Shown here in pieces: positions 8,899-28,591 of a DNA stretch of 34,306 bases. The translations under genes were made by a program, and so were the position numbers. The stretch comes from a virus: UHGV virus genome UHGV-0121572. One strand, written 5' to 3'. Numbering within the stretch: the stretch's first letter is position 1; every line of letters starts with the position of its first letter. The notes under the pieces were generated by a model. That model saw nothing but the letters and a program-made list of their open reading frames with translations. It searched no databases and was not told where the DNA came from.

Positions 8899-9087
8899 AT
8901 GCAGGACTATTTTTTGGAGTCTTTGAAGCTCCAGCGCATTGATTTTTTTCTTAAGCTTGTAGCGGCTAGTGAGTGTAGTGATGAAGAGAAGGGGCTGGCC
9001 CTGCAGTGGGTTTCTGAACTGACAGATGAACTCATGGCAAAAATCAGAACCCACGAATACAACCGCTCAATGGATGTCATCAGCTGA
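8899..9087 (+). CDS. Hypothetical SOS-controlled small protein (possible N-terminal part of a Tum-like antirepressor)
   Basis: 62-aa ORF with strong AGGAGG RBS directly downstream of the LexA box. Confidence 0.5.
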   Translation: MQDYFLESLKLQRIDFFLKLVAASECSDEEKGLALQWVSELTDELMAKIRTHEYNRSMDVIS

Positions 9088-9097
9088 GGTGACTTTT

Positions 9098-9331
9098 ATG
9101 CGCATTGAAATAATGATCGATAAAGAGCAGAAGATTAGCCAGTCTACACTAGACGCCCTTGAATCCGAGCTTTACCGCAATCTGCGCCCCCTGTATCCCA
9201 AAACGGTAATTCGTATCCGCAAAGGTAGCTCTAACGGTGTGGAACTGACCGGACTGCAACTGGACGAAGAAAGAAAACAAGTGATGAAAATTATGCAGAA
9301 GGTGTGGGAAGACGACAGCTGGCTGCATTAA
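9098..9331 (+). CDS. DinI-like protein (Tum C-terminal-domain-like)
   Basis: ORF 9026..9331; ATG at 9098 with GAGGTG RBS gives a 77-aa product MRIEIMIDKEQ…QKVWEDDSWLH matching the DinI family profile (MRIE… start, acidic W-containing C-terminus). Confidence 0.75.
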   Translation: MRIEIMIDKEQKISQSTLDALESELYRNLRPLYPKTVIRIRKGSSNGVELTGLQLDEERKQVMKIMQKVWEDDSWLH

Positions 9332-9490: not shown

Positions 9491-9916
9491 CTACTTAATT
9501 GAGTCCAGTAACAAGTTACAGTTACTCTCATTGTAGAGAGAACGAGCAATTAGTGTTACCTGCTTTCCATTCATTCCCGGCTTATCCCATAACACAGCTT
9601 CTTGCGACGCCACAAATTCAGCATAATCAATTATGCGTTGTTCGTGATCTGGTTCCTCATAGCCAAAGTATGAGAGCGCATCGTTGTAAGCGTGGTAAGC
9701 TGCTTTCTGTAATATCTTGATATCGGCTGTAGGTACTTGCTCCGTGTAGCTAGGATCTAATTGTGTGCTACTGCCATAGAATGCACATGAAAGGTAAGAT
9801 ATTGATTTCTGTTGAGCTTTAGTTCCTTTCTCATAGTTTTTAGCTGTTACCGCCTGAACTGGGACGCTAACAAAGCTTGCAACCAGAATTAAAATTAATA
9901 CGTAAAAGCTTTTCAT
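9491..9916 (-). CDS. Secreted/periplasmic protein of unknown function (141 aa), cargo (moron) candidate
   Basis: N-terminal signal peptide MKSFYVLILILVASFVSVPVQA with A-x-A-like cleavage site; GAGG RBS; opposite strand to flanking phage genes. Confidence 0.6.
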   Translation of the reverse strand: MKSFYVLILILVASFVSVPVQAVTAKNYEKGTKAQQKSISYLSCAFYGSSTQLDPSYTEQVPTADIKILQKAAYHAYNDALSYFGYEEPDHEQRIIDYAEFVASQEAVLWDKPGMNGKQVTLIARSLYNESNCNLLLDSIK

Positions 9917-10365: not shown

Positions 10366-11589
10366 ATGAAATATTCAATTGATAAATTGGTTCATAAAGA
10401 TGAATTTAATAACAATTTCGAAATTGACCTTGGAGGGAGAAATTTAATTATTACTGGTAATAATGGTTCGGGAAAGACAAATTTATTAAAAAGATTGTAT
10501 TCTGTTTTAGAGCAGAGATTGGTTAGTATAGGGGATAATACCTTAACGAAGGCCATAGAAAAGCTGAACGAAGCTGAGGAACAATTAAGGAAACGTTTGC
10601 CTGGTGATTCATTATATGATTATTTTCTTAAACAGAAGAACGAAGCTACAAGGTTTATTGATAATGAAAAGAAATTTTCAATAACTTTTAATGATGAGAG
10701 GGATTTCAAGGTTTCAATTCATGAAAGAAAATCAATCATCAGATTTTTCGAAGCAACGCGGCAGGCGAGTATACTAGGTGATGGATCTATCTCAGGGATG
10801 GAAAAATTACTTCAAGAACACAAACAGCTATCGCTGACCAAGGATTCAGGTATATTATTTGAACGCTATTTAGTCTCTTATTGGAACTACGGGTTGCTGC
10901 AGAAGGGAAGTGGGAATGATATAGAGGCTGAGCGTGTTTTCAGCTGGATAGAAAAAATAAATCAAGATTTGAAAGTGTTGTTTGAAGATGAGTCTTTAAC
11001 GCTTGATTTTAATCTGGCAGAATTACGTATTTACTTAAAACAAAACGGTAAAGCACCTTTCAGATTAGATCAATTGTCGTCAGGTTTTTCATCAGTACTA
11101 TCTATTTATGCGGATTTGTTAGTAAAAGTTGAACTTGAAAAACTCGCACGTCACGAAATTTCAGGGATCGTTTTGATTGATGAAATTGATGCACATCTTC
11201 ATGTCACCCTACAGAAAAAGGTTTTCTCGTTTTTTAGTTCAGCTTTCCCAAATATACAGTTTATAATAACAACTCACTCTCCATTTGTTGTTCAATCTGT
11301 ATCGGATTGTATTATTTTTAATTTATCCACTTTAGAAACAATGTACGATCTCTCTATGTATTCTTACACGTCAATTATAAAAGGATTGCTAGGGGAAACT
11401 TCAGAGTCTGACACTCTAAAAGAAAAAATTAAATTGTTGGAGTCAATTTATAACGATCAGCAAATTAATGTTTTAGAATTGCAGAAGGTAGTCGGAGAAC
11501 TTGAGCCATATATTGATAAGATGGATGCAGCTTCGAAAGTAAAAATAGCCCTAGCTCAGAATAAAATCATTGAGATTCTAGGGGGGTAA
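10366..11589 (+). CDS. ABC/AAA-type ATPase (AAA_15/AAA_21-like; Septu PtuA-like defence ATPase candidate)
   Basis: Walker A GNNGSGKT near N-terminus, ABC-signature-like LSSGF, Walker B VLIDEIDAHLH and H-loop TTHSP near C-terminus; visibly AT-rich; 5-bp gap to downstream HNH gene. Confidence 0.8.
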   Translation: MKYSIDKLVHKDEFNNNFEIDLGGRNLIITGNNGSGKTNLLKRLYSVLEQRLVSIGDNTLTKAIEKLNEAEEQLRKRLPGDSLYDYFLKQKNEATRFIDNEKKFSITFNDERDFKVSIHERKSIIRFFEATRQASILGDGSISGMEKLLQEHKQLSLTKDSGILFERYLVSYWNYGLLQKGSGNDIEAERVFSWIEKINQDLKVLFEDESLTLDFNLAELRIYLKQNGKAPFRLDQLSSGFSSVLSIYADLLVKVELEKLARHEISGIVLIDEIDAHLHVTLQKKVFSFFSSAFPNIQFIITTHSPFVVQSVSDCIIFNLSTLETMYDLSMYSYTSIIKGLLGETSESDTLKEKIKLLESIYNDQQINVLELQKVVGELEPYIDKMDAASKVKIALAQNKIIEILGG

Positions 11590-11594
11590 TTATT

Positions 11595-12266
11595 ATGTTT
11601 AATGTTTCTAGGGTTGCTCCAGCCCCTGCCTGTTTAGCCCGTAAGACTTATAATGATCCTACGGTTGTTGCCGCGTTAAAAAGTATGTTCTTTGGTAAGT
11701 GTTATTTATGTGAGCAAGTTGATCTTACCGATCCAGAGATTGAGCATTTTACTCCTCATCAGGGCGATACATTGCTAAAATATAGCTGGGAGAATTTATT
11801 TTATTCTTGTCGTCGTTGTAATAGTATTAAAGGCACTCGACATACTAATATTCTAAATTGTACGGATTCCAGTGTAAATGTCACCAACGAGATTGTACAT
11901 ATATTACCGGGGATTAGCTCTGAAAGGGTAACTGTTCGTCCTTTTTCTTCAAATCCTAGCCAAGAGACATTAAATACAGTAGCGTTGCTTGATGAATGTT
12001 ATAATTTAGACAATACAGGTTTGCGTGGTATTACGCGAGAAAATTTAATGGAAAAAATTTTTGACCATTATTATGAGTATATAAATGTTAGACGAGTGCT
12101 GATCACTAGAACTAGTATACAGAGTAGAATCGATGAAGCTATTGAAACACTAAAAATAATGTGTAACCCAAAATATCCTTTTTCAGCGTTTTGGGTATGG
12201 CATTTTAAGCTCGATGTTCGGCTACATGAGTTACGGCCTGAGGTTTTAGAGGTTATTGACGTGTAG
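11595..12266 (+). CDS. HNH endonuclease (Septu PtuB-like nuclease candidate)
   Basis: CxxC…EH…N…CxxCN arrangement (…GKCYLCEQVDLTDPEIEHFTPHQG…WENLFYSCRRCNS…) typical of zinc-bound HNH nucleases; GGGGG RBS; co-oriented with upstream ATPase. Confidence 0.75.
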   Translation: MFNVSRVAPAPACLARKTYNDPTVVAALKSMFFGKCYLCEQVDLTDPEIEHFTPHQGDTLLKYSWENLFYSCRRCNSIKGTRHTNILNCTDSSVNVTNEIVHILPGISSERVTVRPFSSNPSQETLNTVALLDECYNLDNTGLRGITRENLMEKIFDHYYEYINVRRVLITRTSIQSRIDEAIETLKIMCNPKYPFSAFWVWHFKLDVRLHELRPEVLEVIDV

Positions 12267-22974: not shown

Positions 22975-23572
22975 TCTGCTGCCACCGGGTTCAACTTCAC
23001 TGGAGCGCCGACTGGCGCAGACCTGTAGCGGGATTTCTGATCTGCAGGTGCCGCTGCGTGACTTGTGGAATCCGGCAACCTGTCCGATCAGTTTCCTGCC
23101 TTATCTCGCCTGGGCGTTCTCTGTGGATCGCTGGGACGAGGGCTGGACAGAAAGCGTCAAGCGCCAGGTGGTGAAGGATGCTTTTTATATTCATCAGCAT
23201 AAAGGAACCACCAGTGCCGTGCGGCGGGTGGTGGAGCCGTTCGGCTTCCTGATACGCATTATTGAGTGGTGGCAGACTGGAGAAACACCGGGCACGTTTC
23301 GCCTGGACATCGGCGTGCAGGACCAGGGCATCACTGAAGATACCTATCTGGAACTTGAGCGGCTGATAAGCGATGCCAAACCATGTAGCCGTCACATGAT
23401 CGGCATGTCCATCAATCTGCAAACCAGTGGCCCGCACTGGGTAGGGGCCGCCAGCTATCTTGGTGAAGAAATCACGATCTATCCGTATATCAACGAAACA
23501 ATTATTTCTGGCGGCACCGCGCATGAAGGCGGGGCGGTCCATGTTATTGACACAATGAGAGTGAATCCATGA
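22967..23572 (+). CDS. I: Tail protein I (baseplate)
   Basis: 201-aa ORF; conserved order. Confidence 0.8.
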   Translation: MNSLLPPGSTSLERRLAQTCSGISDLQVPLRDLWNPATCPISFLPYLAWAFSVDRWDEGWTESVKRQVVKDAFYIHQHKGTTSAVRRVVEPFGFLIRIIEWWQTGETPGTFRLDIGVQDQGITEDTYLELERLISDAKPCSRHMIGMSINLQTSGPHWVGAASYLGEEITIYPYINETIISGGTAHEGGAVHVIDTMRVNP

Positions 23573-25098
23573 GCACAAAATTTTATACCCTGCTGACGGA
23601 TATTGGCGCGGCGAAACTTGCCAGCGCCGCCGCGCTCGGTGTGCCGTTAAAAATTACCCATATGGCGGTCGGCGATGGCGGCGGAACATTACCAACGCCG
23701 GACGCAAAGCAGACTGCACTGGTAAATGAGAAACGCCGGGCTGCGCTGAATATGCTCTATATCGACCCGCAAAACAGCAGCCAGATTATTGCTGAACAGG
23801 TGATCCCTGAAAACGAGGGCGGTTGGTGGATACGTGAAGTGGGCCTGTTTGATGAATCCGGGGCATTGATTGCCGTGGGCAACTGCCCGGAAAGCTATAA
23901 GCCGCAACTGGCTGAAGGCAGCGGGCGCACCCAGACCGTGCGCATGGTGTTGATTACCAGCAGCACGGACAATATCACCCTGAAAATCGACCCTGCCGTC
24001 GTGCTGGCAACCCGCAAGTATGTGGATGATAAGGTACTGGAGCTGAAGGTGTACGTGGATGATCAGATGGCAAAACATCTTGCAGCACCGGACCCGCATT
24101 CACAGTATGCACCCAAAGAAAGTCCTACGTTTACCGGGACACCCAAAGCGCCAACGCCAGCGGCGGGGAATAATACCACGCAGGTTGCGACCACCGCGTT
24201 TGTTCAGGCGGCACTGACGGCTCTTATTAATGGTGCGCCAGCCACGCTGGACACGCTGAAAGAAATTGCCGCAGCCATAAACAATGACCCGAAATTCAGT
24301 ACCACCATTAACAATGCGCTGGCACTGAAAGCGCCGCTGTCGAGTCCGGCACTCACCGGAACGCCAACCGCACCGACTGCGGCACAGTCGGTCAACAATA
24401 CACAGATTGCCACCACGGCATTTGTGAAATCGGCGATTGCGGCAATGGTGGGTTCTGCACCTGCGGCACTGGATACACTGAACGAACTGGCGGCGGCGCT
24501 GGGGAATGACCCGAACTTTGCCACGACAATGCTTAATGCACTGGCAGGTAAACAACCGCTGGACAATACGCTGACTAATTTGAGTGGAAAGGATGTTGCT
24601 GGTCTTCTCGCATACCTTGGTTTGGGAGAAGGTTCTGCATTACCTGTAGGAGTACCAGTTCCGTGGCCTTCAGCCACTCTGCCGACAGGCTGGTTGAAAT
24701 GCAATGGCGCTGCCTTTGATAAGGTTAAATATCCCCGTCTTGCTACAGCATATCCATCAGGGAAACTACCTGATCTCCGTGGTGAGTTTATTCGTGGCTG
24801 GGATGACGGACGAGGCGTTGATGCTGGACGTGCTTTATTGAGCATTCAGACTGGGATGCTGGAAAAACATCGCCATATTGTTGTTGCCAACGATGGGTAT
24901 GATTCAAAAGAGGAATGGGAACTGGCGACAATCTTCAGAAGAGCATACACGCAAGGCCGGGGGCTTGATGCTGCTGATGTCGGAGGGACTCTGATTCCAT
25001 CACCAACGCTACATACACGAGGGAGTATTGGTAACACAGGTGGAAGCGAAACCCGTCCGCGAAATATTGCATTTAACTTTATCGTGAGGGCTGCATAA
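23569..25098 (+). CDS. H: Tail fibre protein H
   Basis: 509 aa; internal repeats (TGTPxAPT…NNTQxATTAFV…APAxLDTLxExAAAxxNDPxF) typical of P2-type tail fibres; distal C-terminal part of the Mu S / P1 S type. Confidence 0.85.
   Translation: MSTKFYTLLTDIGAAKLASAAALGVPLKITHMAVGDGGGTLPTPDAKQTALVNEKRRAALNMLYIDPQNSSQIIAEQVIPENEGGWWIREVGLFDESGALIAVGNCPESYKPQLAEGSGRTQTVRMVLITSSTDNITLKIDPAVVLATRKYVDDKVLELKVYVDDQMAKHLAAPDPHSQYAPKESPTFTGTPKAPTPAAGNNTTQVATTAFVQAALTALINGAPATLDTLKEIAAAINNDPKFSTTINNALALKAPLSSPALTGTPTAPTAAQSVNNTQIATTAFVKSAIAAMVGSAPAALDTLNELAAALGNDPNFATTMLNALAGKQPLDNTLTNLSGKDVAGLLAYLGLGEGSALPVGVPVPWPSATLPTGWLKCNGAAFDKVKYPRLATAYPSGKLPDLRGEFIRGWDDGRGVDAGRALLSIQTGMLEKHRHIVVANDGYDSKEEWELATIFRRAYTQGRGLDAADVGGTLIPSPTLHTRGSIGNTGGSETRPRNIAFNFIVRAA
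24605..24630. other. gix/hix-like 26-bp recombination site inside H (junction of constant and variable fibre parts)
   Basis: TTCTCGCATACC-TT-GGTTTGGGAGAA: imperfect palindrome around a 2-bp core, resembling Hin/Gin/Cin invertase crossover sites (recalled consensus …AAACC-nn-GGTTT…). Confidence 0.4.
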
Positions 25099-25700
25099 TG
25101 GATAACGCTGTATTAAATAGCGAGCTTATTGCCACGAAGGCGGGGAATATTACTGTCTATAACTATGATGGCGAAACACGGGAATATATTTCCACTTCAA
25201 ATGAATATCTTGCCGTTGGTGTCGGTATCCCGGCATATTCCTGTTTAGATGCTCCTGGCACATATAAGGCTGGTTATGCAATCTGCCGTTCAGTAGATTT
25301 AAACTCATGGGAATATATGCCAGACCATCGCGGTGAAATTATCTATAGCACCGAAACAGGAGAAGCAAAAGAAATCACGGTGCCGGGTAATTATCCTGAA
25401 AATACAACCACTATCGCCCCGTTAACGCCATACGATAAATGGGATGGTGAGAAATGGGTGACGGATACCGAGGCACAGCATAGCGCCGCAGTAGACGCAG
25501 CAGAAGCACAGCGTCAGTCACTGATTGATGCTGCAATGGCTTCCATTAGTCTGATTCAGTTGAAATTGCAGGCCGGGCGGAAGCTGATGCAGGCAGAGAC
25601 CACCCGACTTAACACTGTGCTGGATTACATCGATGCGGTGACGACAACGGATACCAGCACTGCGCCGGATGTCATCTGGCCTGAACTGTCGGAGGCGTAG
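25098..25700 (+). CDS. G: Tail fibre assembly protein G (Tfa family)
   Basis: 200 aa; C-terminus …LDYIDAVTTTDTSTAPDVIWPE characteristic of Tfa/gpG/U chaperones. Confidence 0.8.
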   Translation: MDNAVLNSELIATKAGNITVYNYDGETREYISTSNEYLAVGVGIPAYSCLDAPGTYKAGYAICRSVDLNSWEYMPDHRGEIIYSTETGEAKEITVPGNYPENTTTIAPLTPYDKWDGEKWVTDTEAQHSAAVDAAEAQRQSLIDAAMASISLIQLKLQAGRKLMQAETTRLNTVLDYIDAVTTTDTSTAPDVIWPELSEA

Positions 25701-25702
25701 GT

Positions 25703-25852
25703 CATTCAATATCTGGAGCACGGGGTGTATCGACCAGTTCTAGTGCATCCAGATAACTCACCCACGAATTATATTGTTCCAGTTCGCCACCTTTCAGGCG
25801 ATAAATAGCTGCTTTATCAGACCATTGCTTACTGTTTATAAACTCGTTAGCC
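25703..25852 (-). pseudogene. Remnant of an inverted-orientation alternative tail fibre assembly gene (G')
   Basis: My - strand translation gives …KQWSDKAAIYRLKGGELEQYNSWVSYLDALELVDTPRAPDIE*, which matches the Tfa C-terminal motif; only ~50 codons, no start. Confidence 0.5.
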
Positions 25853-25943
25853 TAGTCTATTCGCAGTTGTTTCTCTGCTTCGGTAGCAACCACAATCTCA
25901 TATAAATTAAACTAATAAGTTTTTATTAAAAGTAAGATAGATG

Positions 25944-25966
25944 CCACCATTTTATATAAATGGTGG
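25944..25966 (-). terminator. Stem-loop (possible terminator) just downstream of the orphan 290-aa gene
   Basis: CCACCATTT-TATAT-AAATGGTGG perfect 9-bp stem; on the - strand followed by a moderately U-rich stretch. Confidence 0.3.
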
Positions 25967-25973
25967 TTCGCAG

Positions 25974-26846
25974 TTAACTAGCATGTAATAAGTTGAACAG
26001 GTTTTTAGTTACTTCGTTTTTAGTACTAAAAAACATATCTTTAAGGTCCGGTAATGCAAAGGCAGCATTTTGGTCATTCGGTACAACAATAGGAGGCTCA
26101 TATCCGTTGTCATACATTTTCTTTAAAGCGGCTACTATTTTTGTCTGATTTTGACTGAATTCTTTCATGTCAATAAAAATTTCTCCAGATAGGGTCCCAT
26201 CATCTTCACGTAGTATCGCTGGTTTGACACGACATATCTGATCCATTTCTCCAGTAGAAAAACCGGCAATCGCTGCATTAAATAACAAAGATGAAGTAGC
26301 CCATTTTTCATATAGTTTTTTGATAGCCATGCTTCTGATTTTTTTATCGTTGATATATCCAATGCCACTGGCCAAAACTTCGGTTAATGGATTTTCCCCG
26401 CGAATTACTCCAGACCAATAGTTGTGCATCCAGGGCGCATTTTGCTCAAGCGGAGAGCCGAGATAATCAGTGATCCACTCTGAGTCCACCTCTGTAAAGT
26501 TCAAACCATGAAAATCAATTTCTGCAATAGTGTTTTTATAGTTTTGATTTAAACCCCAACGGTCAATTGCTATTTCAGCCATTTCTTTTGTTTTGAATAG
26601 ATATATTCCGGTTAGGCGGGAAACTTTATCTCTGAAATTGTCTGAGCGTACCTTTTCAAGAGCTAACTCATTTTGTAATTTTTCATTGTGATTATCTGAT
26701 AAGTATTTTCTTACTAGATTGTAGAACCAAATAGATACTCCAAACTCACTTTTATAACAGATTGATTCAATTCTTCCTATTGCAACCTCCCAGGCAACAA
26801 TTGGATTGTTTAAATTTAAGTAAGCATATAGTTTTCTCTGTTCCAT
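25974..26846 (-). CDS. Orphan hypothetical protein (290 aa), AT-rich cargo gene between G and FI
   Basis: Long ORF with own AAGGA RBS and stop codons upstream in frame; noticeably lower G+C than flanking tail genes; no motif I can assign. Confidence 0.7.
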   Translation of the reverse strand: MEQRKLYAYLNLNNPIVAWEVAIGRIESICYKSEFGVSIWFYNLVRKYLSDNHNEKLQNELALEKVRSDNFRDKVSRLTGIYLFKTKEMAEIAIDRWGLNQNYKNTIAEIDFHGLNFTEVDSEWITDYLGSPLEQNAPWMHNYWSGVIRGENPLTEVLASGIGYINDKKIRSMAIKKLYEKWATSSLLFNAAIAGFSTGEMDQICRVKPAILREDDGTLSGEIFIDMKEFSQNQTKIVAALKKMYDNGYEPPIVVPNDQNAAFALPDLKDMFFSTKNEVTKNLFNLLHAS

Positions 26847-26983
26847 TTTTATTTTCCTTATAGATGCTATGAAGGTTATTATTACATAAATGTTCGATAA
26901 ATGTTTTTAAGTTTTAACTTCGTTTCGGTGCCAATAAATATACATTACAAGTGAAATTTATCAAGGTAACAAAAGGAGAGCTA

Positions 26984-27276
26984 ATGCTAATAGGCTATGT
27001 ACTCCAATGGGCCGTTTCTTTTTTCATGTCATGGGTGCCCTGGCTGAAATGGAACGCGAACTGATAGTTGAACGTACCAGGGCGGGGCTTGCTGCAGCTC
27101 GCGCCAAAGGCAGAGTAGGTGGACGCCGTCCTAAGTTGACCATCGAACAGTGGGCACAGATTGGACGCTTACTCGAGGCCGGAGAATCAAGACAGCGTAT
27201 TGCACTGATTTTTGATGTGGGTGTTTCCACAATTTATAGAAAATTTCCGGCAAATAAGAGTAATGAATCTCCCTGA
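26984..27276 (+). pseudogene. Serine DNA invertase (Hin/Gin/Pin/Cin family) with internal deletion/frameshift
   Basis: ATG at 26984 with AAAGGAGAG RBS encodes MLIGYV (canonical invertase N-terminus) then goes out of frame; ORF 27007..27276 encodes only the C-terminal half (…FHVMGALAEMERELIVERTRAGLAAARAKGRVGGRRPKL…VGVSTIYRKF); the catalytic-serine region is missing. Confidence 0.75.
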
Positions 27277-27418: not shown

Positions 27419-28591
27419 ATGGCTCAGGATTACCACCACGGGGTGCGCGTTGTTGAAGTCAACGAAGGCACCCGATCCATTACCACGGTGAGCACCGCCA
27501 TCGTGGGCATGGTCTGCACGGGCGATGATGCCGATGCAAAAATGTTTCCTCTTAATAAACCCGTGCTGATCACTGATGTACTGACCGCCAGCGGTAAAGC
27601 GGGTGAGTCCGGCACGCTGGCCCGTTCGCTGGATGCCATCGCTGACCAGGCAAAACCCGTGACCGTTGTTGTGCGTGTGCCGCAGGGTGAAACGGAAGAA
27701 GAAACCACGACTAATATTATCGGCGCAGTGACCGCTGAAGGTAAAAAAACAGGCATGAAAGCCCTGTTATCTGCCCAGACACAGCTCGGCGTTAAACCGC
27801 GCATTCTCGGCGTGCCAGGTCACGATAACAAAGCCGTTGCGACTGAGTTGCTGAGCGTGGCGCAAAGCCTGCGTGGGTTTGCTTACCTGTCAGCGTATGG
27901 CTGCAAGACGGTACAGGAGGCGATCACTTACCGTGAAAACTTCAGCCAGCGCGAAGGGATGCTGATCTGGCCTGACTTTACTGGCTGGGACACGGTGCTG
28001 AATGACGAAGCAACGGCATATGCCACCGCCCGTGCGCTCGGTCTGCGCGCCAAAATTGATGAGCAGACCGGGTGGCACAAGAGCCTGTCCAACGTAGGCG
28101 TGAACGGTGTCACCGGAATTTCTGCTGATGTGTTCTGGGATCTGCAGGACCCGGCAACCGATGCAGGTCTGCTTAACCAGAACGACGTCACCACCCTTAT
28201 CCGCAAGGACGGTTTCCGCTTCTGGGGTTCCCGCTGTCTGAGTGATGATCCGCTCTTTGCCTTCGAAAACTACACCCGCACGGCGCAGGTGCTGACGGAC
28301 ACGATGGCAGAAGCGCACATGTGGGCGGTGGACAAACCGCTTAACCCGTCGCTGGCCCGCGACATTATCGAAGGTATCCGCGCCAAAATGCGCAGTCTGG
28401 TAAGCCAGGGCTATCTCATTGGTGGTGATTGCTGGCTGGATGAGTCGGTGAACGACAAAGACACGCTGAAAGCCGGAAAACTCACCATCGACTATGACTA
28501 CACGCCAGTGCCGCCACTTGAAAATCTGATGCTGCGCCAGCGCATCACCGATCAGTACCTGGTGAATTTCGCCAGCCAGGTCAGCGCGTAA
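27419..28591 (+). CDS. FI: Tail sheath protein (P2 gpFI family)
   Basis: 390 aa; strong AGGAGG RBS; conserved FI-FII-E-T-U-D order. Confidence 0.9.

Follow-up and report, generated by a model that had tools for sequence, protein, structure and literature searches.

The stretch between the tail fiber gene H (23569..25098, + strand) and the sheath gene FI (27419..28591) of the virus genome UHGV-0121572 raises the question of whether it holds a working host-range switch or the remains of one, and of how a 290-aa gene came to lie within it. The window, as the whole stretch of 34,306 nucleotides analyzed here is called, is a nearly complete Escherichia prophage of the P2-like type (Peduoviridae), in which genes for integrase, gpA, portal, terminase, capsid, baseplate, tail fiber, sheath, tube, tape measure, and gpD were found. 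The DNA across the switch region is 98.2% identical to prophages of four complete E. coli genomes, and Escherichia sp. MOD1-EC7003 has H, G, invertase-remnant, and sheath proteins with 100% identity to those of the window. Carriers of the allele include this strain and E. coli ET350, KN13-4, and GN02461. An initial annotation, made from the sequence of the window, had described the region as an ancestral invertible host-range segment that is now frozen. Our comparisons agree with this description, as the layout of a complete switch is seen in intact relatives and the window keeps one crossover site, with no partner and no recombinase. Very probably, the region is an ancestral tail fiber segment of the Gin/Cin/Pin type, frozen by the loss of parts, beside which a cargo gene sits in a slot of its own. 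This is ordinary gene decay and not a new mechanism.

Tail fiber switches operated by invertases of the Din family include the G segment of phage Mu (Gin), the C segment of phage P1 (Cin), and the P segment of e14 (Pin). The P2-like lineage of the window normally has a switch of this type in the H-FI interval, where a serine invertase recombines two inverted 26-bp sites, one within H and the other just upstream of the invertase gene, and the inversion flips a segment with two alternative fiber tips and their chaperones (Hv-G and Hv'-G'). The intact relatives of the window resemble these switches in every part, with the constant part of the fiber, a 26-bp site, a tip with its chaperone, an inverted second pair, a further site, and a serine invertase alongside it (H / left site / Hv-G / G'-Hv' / right site / invertase). 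For instance, in E. coli UMNK88 (locus L003) and phage 500465-1, H and G are followed on the opposite strand by G' (147 aa) and an open reading frame (ORF) for Hv' (136 aa, Gp53-like_C), the alternative fiber tip, and then by an invertase of 188 aa. The partner site of the intact relatives, TTTTCTTAAACG-TT-GGTTTGGGAGAA, is inverted and located 56 bp upstream of the invertase ATG, sharing 14 bp (TTGGTTTGGGAGAA) with the left site, and the intact invertase is 73% identical to Mu Gin over 184 residues (E 4e-91). When the inversion was simulated, the resulting junction read in frame (…AGLLAYLGLGE/AAKRDVGTG…) to a stop codon, yielding an alternative H, and 97 complete E. coli genomes contain this flipped junction as one continuous stretch (identity up to 99.5%). 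The segment thus occurs naturally in both orientations, and the site is a genuine point of crossover. In contrast to the switches of Mu, P1, and e14, the window has one site, an invertase without its catalytic domain, and no second tip, and represents a fossil.

Among P2-like prophages, inversion has been demonstrated experimentally by sequencing and polymerase chain reaction (PCR) in enteropathogenic E. coli (EPEC) E2348/69 (PMC4272514). The H/G-FI interval corresponds to the Z/fun hotspot of P2, characterized in a preprint (bioRxiv 10.1101/2024.10.15.618418) as a mixed hotspot for invertases, fiber swaps, and defense-like cargo. The invertible loci covered by these two sources occupy the same slot between H/G and FI, from which the copy in the window differs in being decayed. 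All seven complete E. coli genomes with the cargo cassette are collinear with the window, and in none of them is the segment inverted.

The left end of the ancestral switch is well preserved. The gene H (509 aa) is intact, matches the Pfam families Phage_tail_fib and Collar, and is equal in length to H of UMNK88; a constant part extends up to the crossover site and is followed by the variable tip Hv (24631..25098). The Hin/Gin-like palindrome of 26 bp that the initial annotation placed about two-thirds into H proved to be a gix/hix-like crossover site, TTCTCGCATACCTTGGTTTGGGAGAA, at 24605..24630 (+ strand), which is 68% along the gene. This site has the structure TTCTCGCATACC-TT-GGTTTGGGAGAA, fits the 12-2-12 consensus, and is base-for-base the left site of UMNK88, where the switch is intact. 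With up to three mismatches, it is the sole match in the window both to itself and to the Hin/Gin-type consensus TTATCNNAAACCNNGGTTTNNGATAA, and matches were obtained in none of 100 shuffles. The homology of H to relatives also breaks at this point, stopping in blastn at 24639 against the E. coli C4-type genomes (L002) and at 24629 against a JGI metagenome contig (L018). The site is partnerless: searches of the window with the consensus, the exact site, and a half-site pattern (up to three mismatches), along with a repeat search that returned no inverted partner, detected no second crossover site, including at 26900..26990, where the initial annotation had proposed to look for it. The nearest look-alike, TTAAGTTTTAAC TT CGTTTCGGTGCC at 26907..26932, matches at about half of the positions and was dismissed by eye. 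Two inverted 26-bp sites flanking the segment, as expected of a Din-type switch, are thus found in the intact relatives and not in the window.

At the opposite end, alignment to intact invertible segments and invertases mapped deletion breakpoints in the invertase gene as well as in G'. The invertase survives as a 5' stub of codons 1-6 (MLIGYV) plus 2 nt (26984..27003, + strand, ATG at 26984), collinear with relatives, and a 3' remnant of residues 98-189 (27001..27276, + strand) that is out of frame with the stub and comprises the end of the Resolvase domain and HTH_7. A global pairwise alignment with the intact gene of 567 nt showed that nt 1-20 and 295-567 are kept and nt 21-294 are gone; as this deletion of 274 bp is not a multiple of three, it shifts the frame, and it removes codons 7-98 with the catalytic nucleophile Ser9. 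The start at MLIGYV, the loss of frame, and the resumption as a C-terminal half were all described correctly by the initial annotation. In addition, a relative with an intact invertase aligns collinearly with the window over 1.1 kb (84% identity), and the 20-nt start forms the end of this alignment, so that MLIGYV is no chance match. The frame after MLIGYV is junk, lacking the Ser9 and the YVRVS motif of the Din-family catalytic domain. The remnant, which shows 98.9% identity with the corresponding residues (98-189) of the intact protein and 67% identity with Gin over 85 residues, retains the end of the catalytic domain, part of the E-helix, and the helix-turn-helix (HTH) DNA-binding domain; its ORF of 89 codons (27007..27276) covers Pfam Resolvase positions 109-144 and HTH_7 (E 1.3e-15), in keeping with the close relationship to Gin. 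The deletion junction (27003/27004, GTACT/CCAATG) falls between the imperfect repeats GTACTC and GTACCC, both of which are present in the C4 allele, and would fit a slippage deletion from a C4-like or intact ancestor. In Gin, Hin, and Cin, the 5' part of the invertase gene contains the Fis-dependent recombinational enhancer. In the window this element was most likely lost as well, its DNA (nt 21-294) being deleted. A tblastn search with the intact invertase found no other serine recombinase in the window, and so none of the intact invertases that the initial annotation had regarded as potential counter-evidence.

It could be asked whether these remains still function, with the 89-aa HTH fragment binding the lone site or sites of other prophages as a regulator or dominant-negative protein, or with a Din-family invertase of the host using the lone site in trans and producing large rearrangements. 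The ORF begins with an ATG and encodes a complete HTH_7, and the Din-family invertases Gin, Cin, Pin, and Hin are interchangeable in trans; however, the ORF has no recognizable ribosome-binding site of its own and lies out of frame behind a junk reading frame of 26 codons, and the Prokaryotic Genome Annotation Pipeline (PGAP) calls the fragment a pseudogene. The high identity of the fragment to the intact protein speaks for function, but is explained equally well by a recent deletion, and the loss of nearly all of the fragment from contig L018 gives no sign of selective retention. We consider a remaining function very unlikely.

Between these two ends, one fiber tip with its assembly gene is complete and the other is almost gone. 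The tail fiber assembly gene G (25098..25700, + strand, 200 aa) is intact (Pfam Caudo_TAP, E 9e-29) and is the expressed chaperone of the frozen orientation. It is followed on the minus strand by the last ~65 codons of G' (25702..25899), which read EIVVATEAEKQLRID, a stop, ANEFINSKQWSDKAAIYRLKGGELEQYNSWVSYLDALELVDTPRAPDIE, and a second stop. This stretch corresponds, with no gap, to residues 73-137 of G' in UMNK88 (147 aa; 68% identity over 65 residues, E 1e-29) and scores 39.6 bits against the Caudo_TAP profile (gathering cut-off 22.1) over positions 66-125 of 131; it is a C-terminal Caudo_TAP fragment and not a functional member of the family. The two nonsense changes are a TAG at 25852-25854 and a TGA at 25702-25704, where intact G' of UMNK88 has Q and W. 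The initial annotation had recognized a Tfa-like remnant of ~50 codons on this strand; it is a real homologue, but that length counts just the 49 codons after the internal TAG, and 15 more homologous codons lie upstream. In E. coli ET350, PGAP annotates both the G' stretch and the invertase 3' remnant as pseudogenes. The two tips, each with its assembly gene, that define a Din-type switch are represented here by an intact Hv-G, no Hv', and 65 codons of G'.

The missing parts were lost at a junction located at 25899..25908 by alignment, blastn, and sequence comparison. Homology to G' stops at ~25899, and from ~25904-25909 on the window matches what lies downstream of the cargo gene in cargo-bearing relatives. 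G' codons 1 to ~72, the whole of Hv', and the right crossover site are lost at this point, amounting to a deletion of ~0.55-0.65 kb as estimated from the gene coordinates of UMNK88 and of a metagenomic contig (L017). The deletion spans from G' codon ~72 to a few bases (~0-6 bp) past the expected outer edge of the right site. This proximity would suit an origin in which the invertase itself deleted the right site, by aberrant recombination between it and a quasi-site in G', instead of by ordinary illegitimate recombination, and deletions at quasi-sites are known for Cin. Nevertheless, serine invertases exchange strands at the central dinucleotide, and the outer half-site (GGTTTTGTAGA-like in contigs L016 and L017) should therefore survive such a deletion at the junction. 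It is absent there, which argues against a recombinase-made deletion with a hybrid site and makes this origin highly improbable. The junction also presents an 18-nt imperfect direct repeat (83% identity; 25890-25907 and 25944-25961, 54 bp apart), which may be due to chance or be a trace of how the deletion formed, and the junction sequence CCACAATCTCATATAAAT is similar to the cargo terminator hairpin in its left arm and loop.

The position of the cargo gene is explained by its relatives. The gene (25974..26846, - strand, 290 aa) is intact and is bounded by a terminator-like hairpin directly after its stop codon (25944..25966, - strand), conserved in contigs L016 and L017, and by an AT-rich divergent intergenic region facing the invertase (26847..26983), collinear with both contigs. 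A promoter-like site at 26937-26964 (- strand) agrees with the consensus at 10 of 12 positions; the region contains no more sites of this kind than shuffles would lead one to expect. In contig L017, where the cargo protein is 87% identical, the order is sheath, intact invertase (183 aa), cargo gene, right crossover site, Hv', G', G, and H. Window positions 25909-27002 are collinear with this contig at 84% identity, from the terminator hairpin through the cargo gene and the intergenic region into the invertase, of which the first 19 nt are included. The cargo gene is likewise divergent from an intact invertase in L016 (88% amino acid identity, invertase of 192 aa), in L019 (77%, 185 aa), and in Citrobacter sedlakii (L010; 60%, 185 aa), and the DNA beside it in L019, which is the right site, matches an inverted copy of window 24601-24668. 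These comparisons of gene order indicate that the cargo gene occupies a place of its own, with the right site on one side and the invertase on the other, where it coexists with a complete switch. The proposal of the initial annotation that it occupies the space of the alternative tip has to be abandoned, because in L017 it stands beside a complete switch; Hv' was simply deleted. The short-read contigs with the cargo gene by an intact invertase (L016, L019, L010, and L011) all end at or just past the right site, L016 exactly at its central AA. This is how an assembler behaves when both orientations are present, and the switches of these prophages may be active.

The same relatives bear on the possibility that the cassette was inserted in a single event that displaced the alternative tip together with the right site and the first half of the invertase. 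When the window is compared with cargo-free relatives only, its positions 25886-27000 (1115 bp) do stand in place of 982 bp of UMNK88 (the 5' part of G', Hv', the right site, and the 5' part of the invertase), and the low G+C of the cassette is what foreign DNA would show. However, relatives with a cargo protein of 87-88% identity have an intact invertase adjoining it, with the complete switch in L017. The invertase leader and its first 20 nt are kept collinear with those relatives, so that the invertase carries a separate internal lesion, and the C4-type allele has the same left junction with a different invertase deletion. A one-step replacement consequently has very little probability.

According to the frozen-switch account, a cassette of one cargo gene, complete with promoter region and terminator, would already have lain between the right site and the invertase gene of an ancestor, where it left the switch unharmed. 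Decay would have followed in at least three ways: a deletion of ~0.55-0.65 kb that took the first ~72 codons of G', Hv', and the right site; an out-of-frame deletion of 274 bp between imperfect GTAC(T/C)C repeats that took invertase codons 7-98 with Ser9; and two nonsense mutations in the G' remnant. The phage would finally be locked into the Hv-G fiber, with the cargo gene kept by selection. Inversion is impossible when only one site remains and a recombinase is absent, and the fiber is fixed as Hv-G. Nothing in the sequence contradicts this account. The anatomy of the region, its homologies and breakpoints, the intact condition of the relatives, and the purifying selection on the cargo gene are established by the data, and the order of events is deduced from them.

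The order of these lesions is suggested by the E. coli C4-type genomes, which have the same G'/cargo junction and an invertase 112 bp longer, with a deletion of ~nt 48-215; the invertase deletions of the two types differ and are nested. A shared left lesion combined with different right lesions suggests that the right site was lost first and that the useless invertase would have eroded afterwards. In the C4-type allele, H is annotated as two pseudogene pieces (1501-1890 and 2539-3006 of L002), and its variable tip is unlike that of the window from the crossover site on, the homology stopping at window position 24639. The split H and the different tip mark this prophage as further decayed and mosaic. 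Contig L018 shows an independent decay of the same locus: its cargo gene (296 aa, 77% identical) adjoins G and H directly, G' and Hv' are missing, and the invertase is reduced to ~100 bp of HTH sequence. IS421 or IS1A is inserted within the same switch region in P2-like prophages of E. coli N18-04097 and G5, and such insertions are a further route of disruption for the switch locus in E. coli.

Several points weigh against this history. The absence of inversion in vivo is something we infer from the sequence, and a related invertase encoded elsewhere in the host chromosome, such as Pin of e14, could still use the lone site in combination with those of other prophages. The invertase deletion of the window may go back to a C4-like state or have arisen on its own, so that more than one order of the lesions is conceivable. 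Moreover, the cargo-bearing intact relatives are 84% identical in DNA and are no direct ancestors, so that the sequence of cargo first and deletion later is an argument from parsimony.

The cargo gene contrasts with the eroded switch in its state of preservation. Its dN/dS (ratio of nonsynonymous to synonymous substitution rates) is 0.04-0.15, with 0.15 between two decayed lineages, which places it under purifying selection, and its G+C content is 27-43% vs. ~55% in the flanks. About 100 homologues of ~290 aa occur across Proteobacteria and beyond, with R25, S38, E60, E64, R67, R77, D121, S122, and E156 among the invariant residues. The protein had no significant match in Pfam (E up to 10), NCBIfam, or PADLOC v2.0.0 (E up to 1), the last of these assigning it to no known anti-phage defense system, and none among Protein Data Bank (PDB) sequences, where 2AUA reached E 0.07-0.13. 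Its matches in PHROGs are to families of unknown function only, and a fold search of BFVD returned two uncharacterized phage proteins only. A literature search for the accessions of the protein found no mention, and the gene is not named in the available parts of PMC4272514 and bioRxiv 10.1101/2024.10.15.618418. The N-terminal part has an ADP-ribosyltransferase (ART)-like fold similar to that of BC2332/DUF2441. BC2332 of Bacillus cereus (PDB 2AUA) defines Pfam DUF2441 within the ART clan (PMC7955679), as well as the SCOP ART family d.166.1.6, with a predicted diphtheria-toxin-like site. The cargo protein differs from BC2332 in that their sequence similarity lies under the Pfam threshold and in having an extra C-terminal domain (~residues 200-290) with no structural match.

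In Aeromonas and Moritella, members of this family were found in the other P2 hotspot (gpA to portal/Ogr). Others belong to a decayed P2-like island of Pantoea, to the edge of a prophage in Yersinia, and to a Vibrio cassette array, where ParE/Phd is the neighbor, with no conserved partner gene beside them across these contexts. A contig scan for family members yielded 10 loci, and P2 marker genes were present only at an Escherichia locus that is essentially the window (L020). Our best guess, based on fold and neighborhood only, is that the cargo protein is an NAD+-using enzyme with a stand-alone defense or host-modifying role, which makes the gene a putative, candidate defense gene. Tentatively, and with odds that we would place clearly below even, the gene may belong to an uncharacterized stand-alone family of ART fold that forms a new single-gene anti-phage (abortive infection) system or a host-modifying enzyme, carried as cargo in both P2 hotspots and in integron-like arrays of Vibrio.

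The other P2 hotspot (gpA-portal) of the window itself contains a Septu defense pair, consisting of the PtuA ATPase (10366-11589, + strand, E 1.5e-124) and the PtuB HNH nuclease (11595-12266, + strand, E 2.6e-83). Upstream of this pair, the hotspot contains a DinI-like gene (9026-9331, + strand, Pfam E 1.3e-22) and an ORF of 141 aa (9491-9916, - strand) with no match in Pfam or PADLOC.

The switch itself matters little, being a textbook Gin-type system in decay, pieces of which the NCBI pipeline already flags as pseudogenes in near-identical genomes. The relatives, in turn, form a series from the switch alone, through the switch with cargo, to the cargo with the switch eroded at least twice independently, and this series illustrates how the Z/fun locus of P2 passes from serving the phage (host range) to serving the lysogen (cargo). 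The uncharacterized cargo family is the only lead of wider interest here. Conserved, under selection, of ART fold, and recurring where defense genes usually sit, it is a reasonable candidate for a defense screen. If this proposed role is true, the retention of the cargo as the switch rots repeatedly, in the window type, the C4 type, and L018, would mean that the lysogen selects for the cargo and not for host range.

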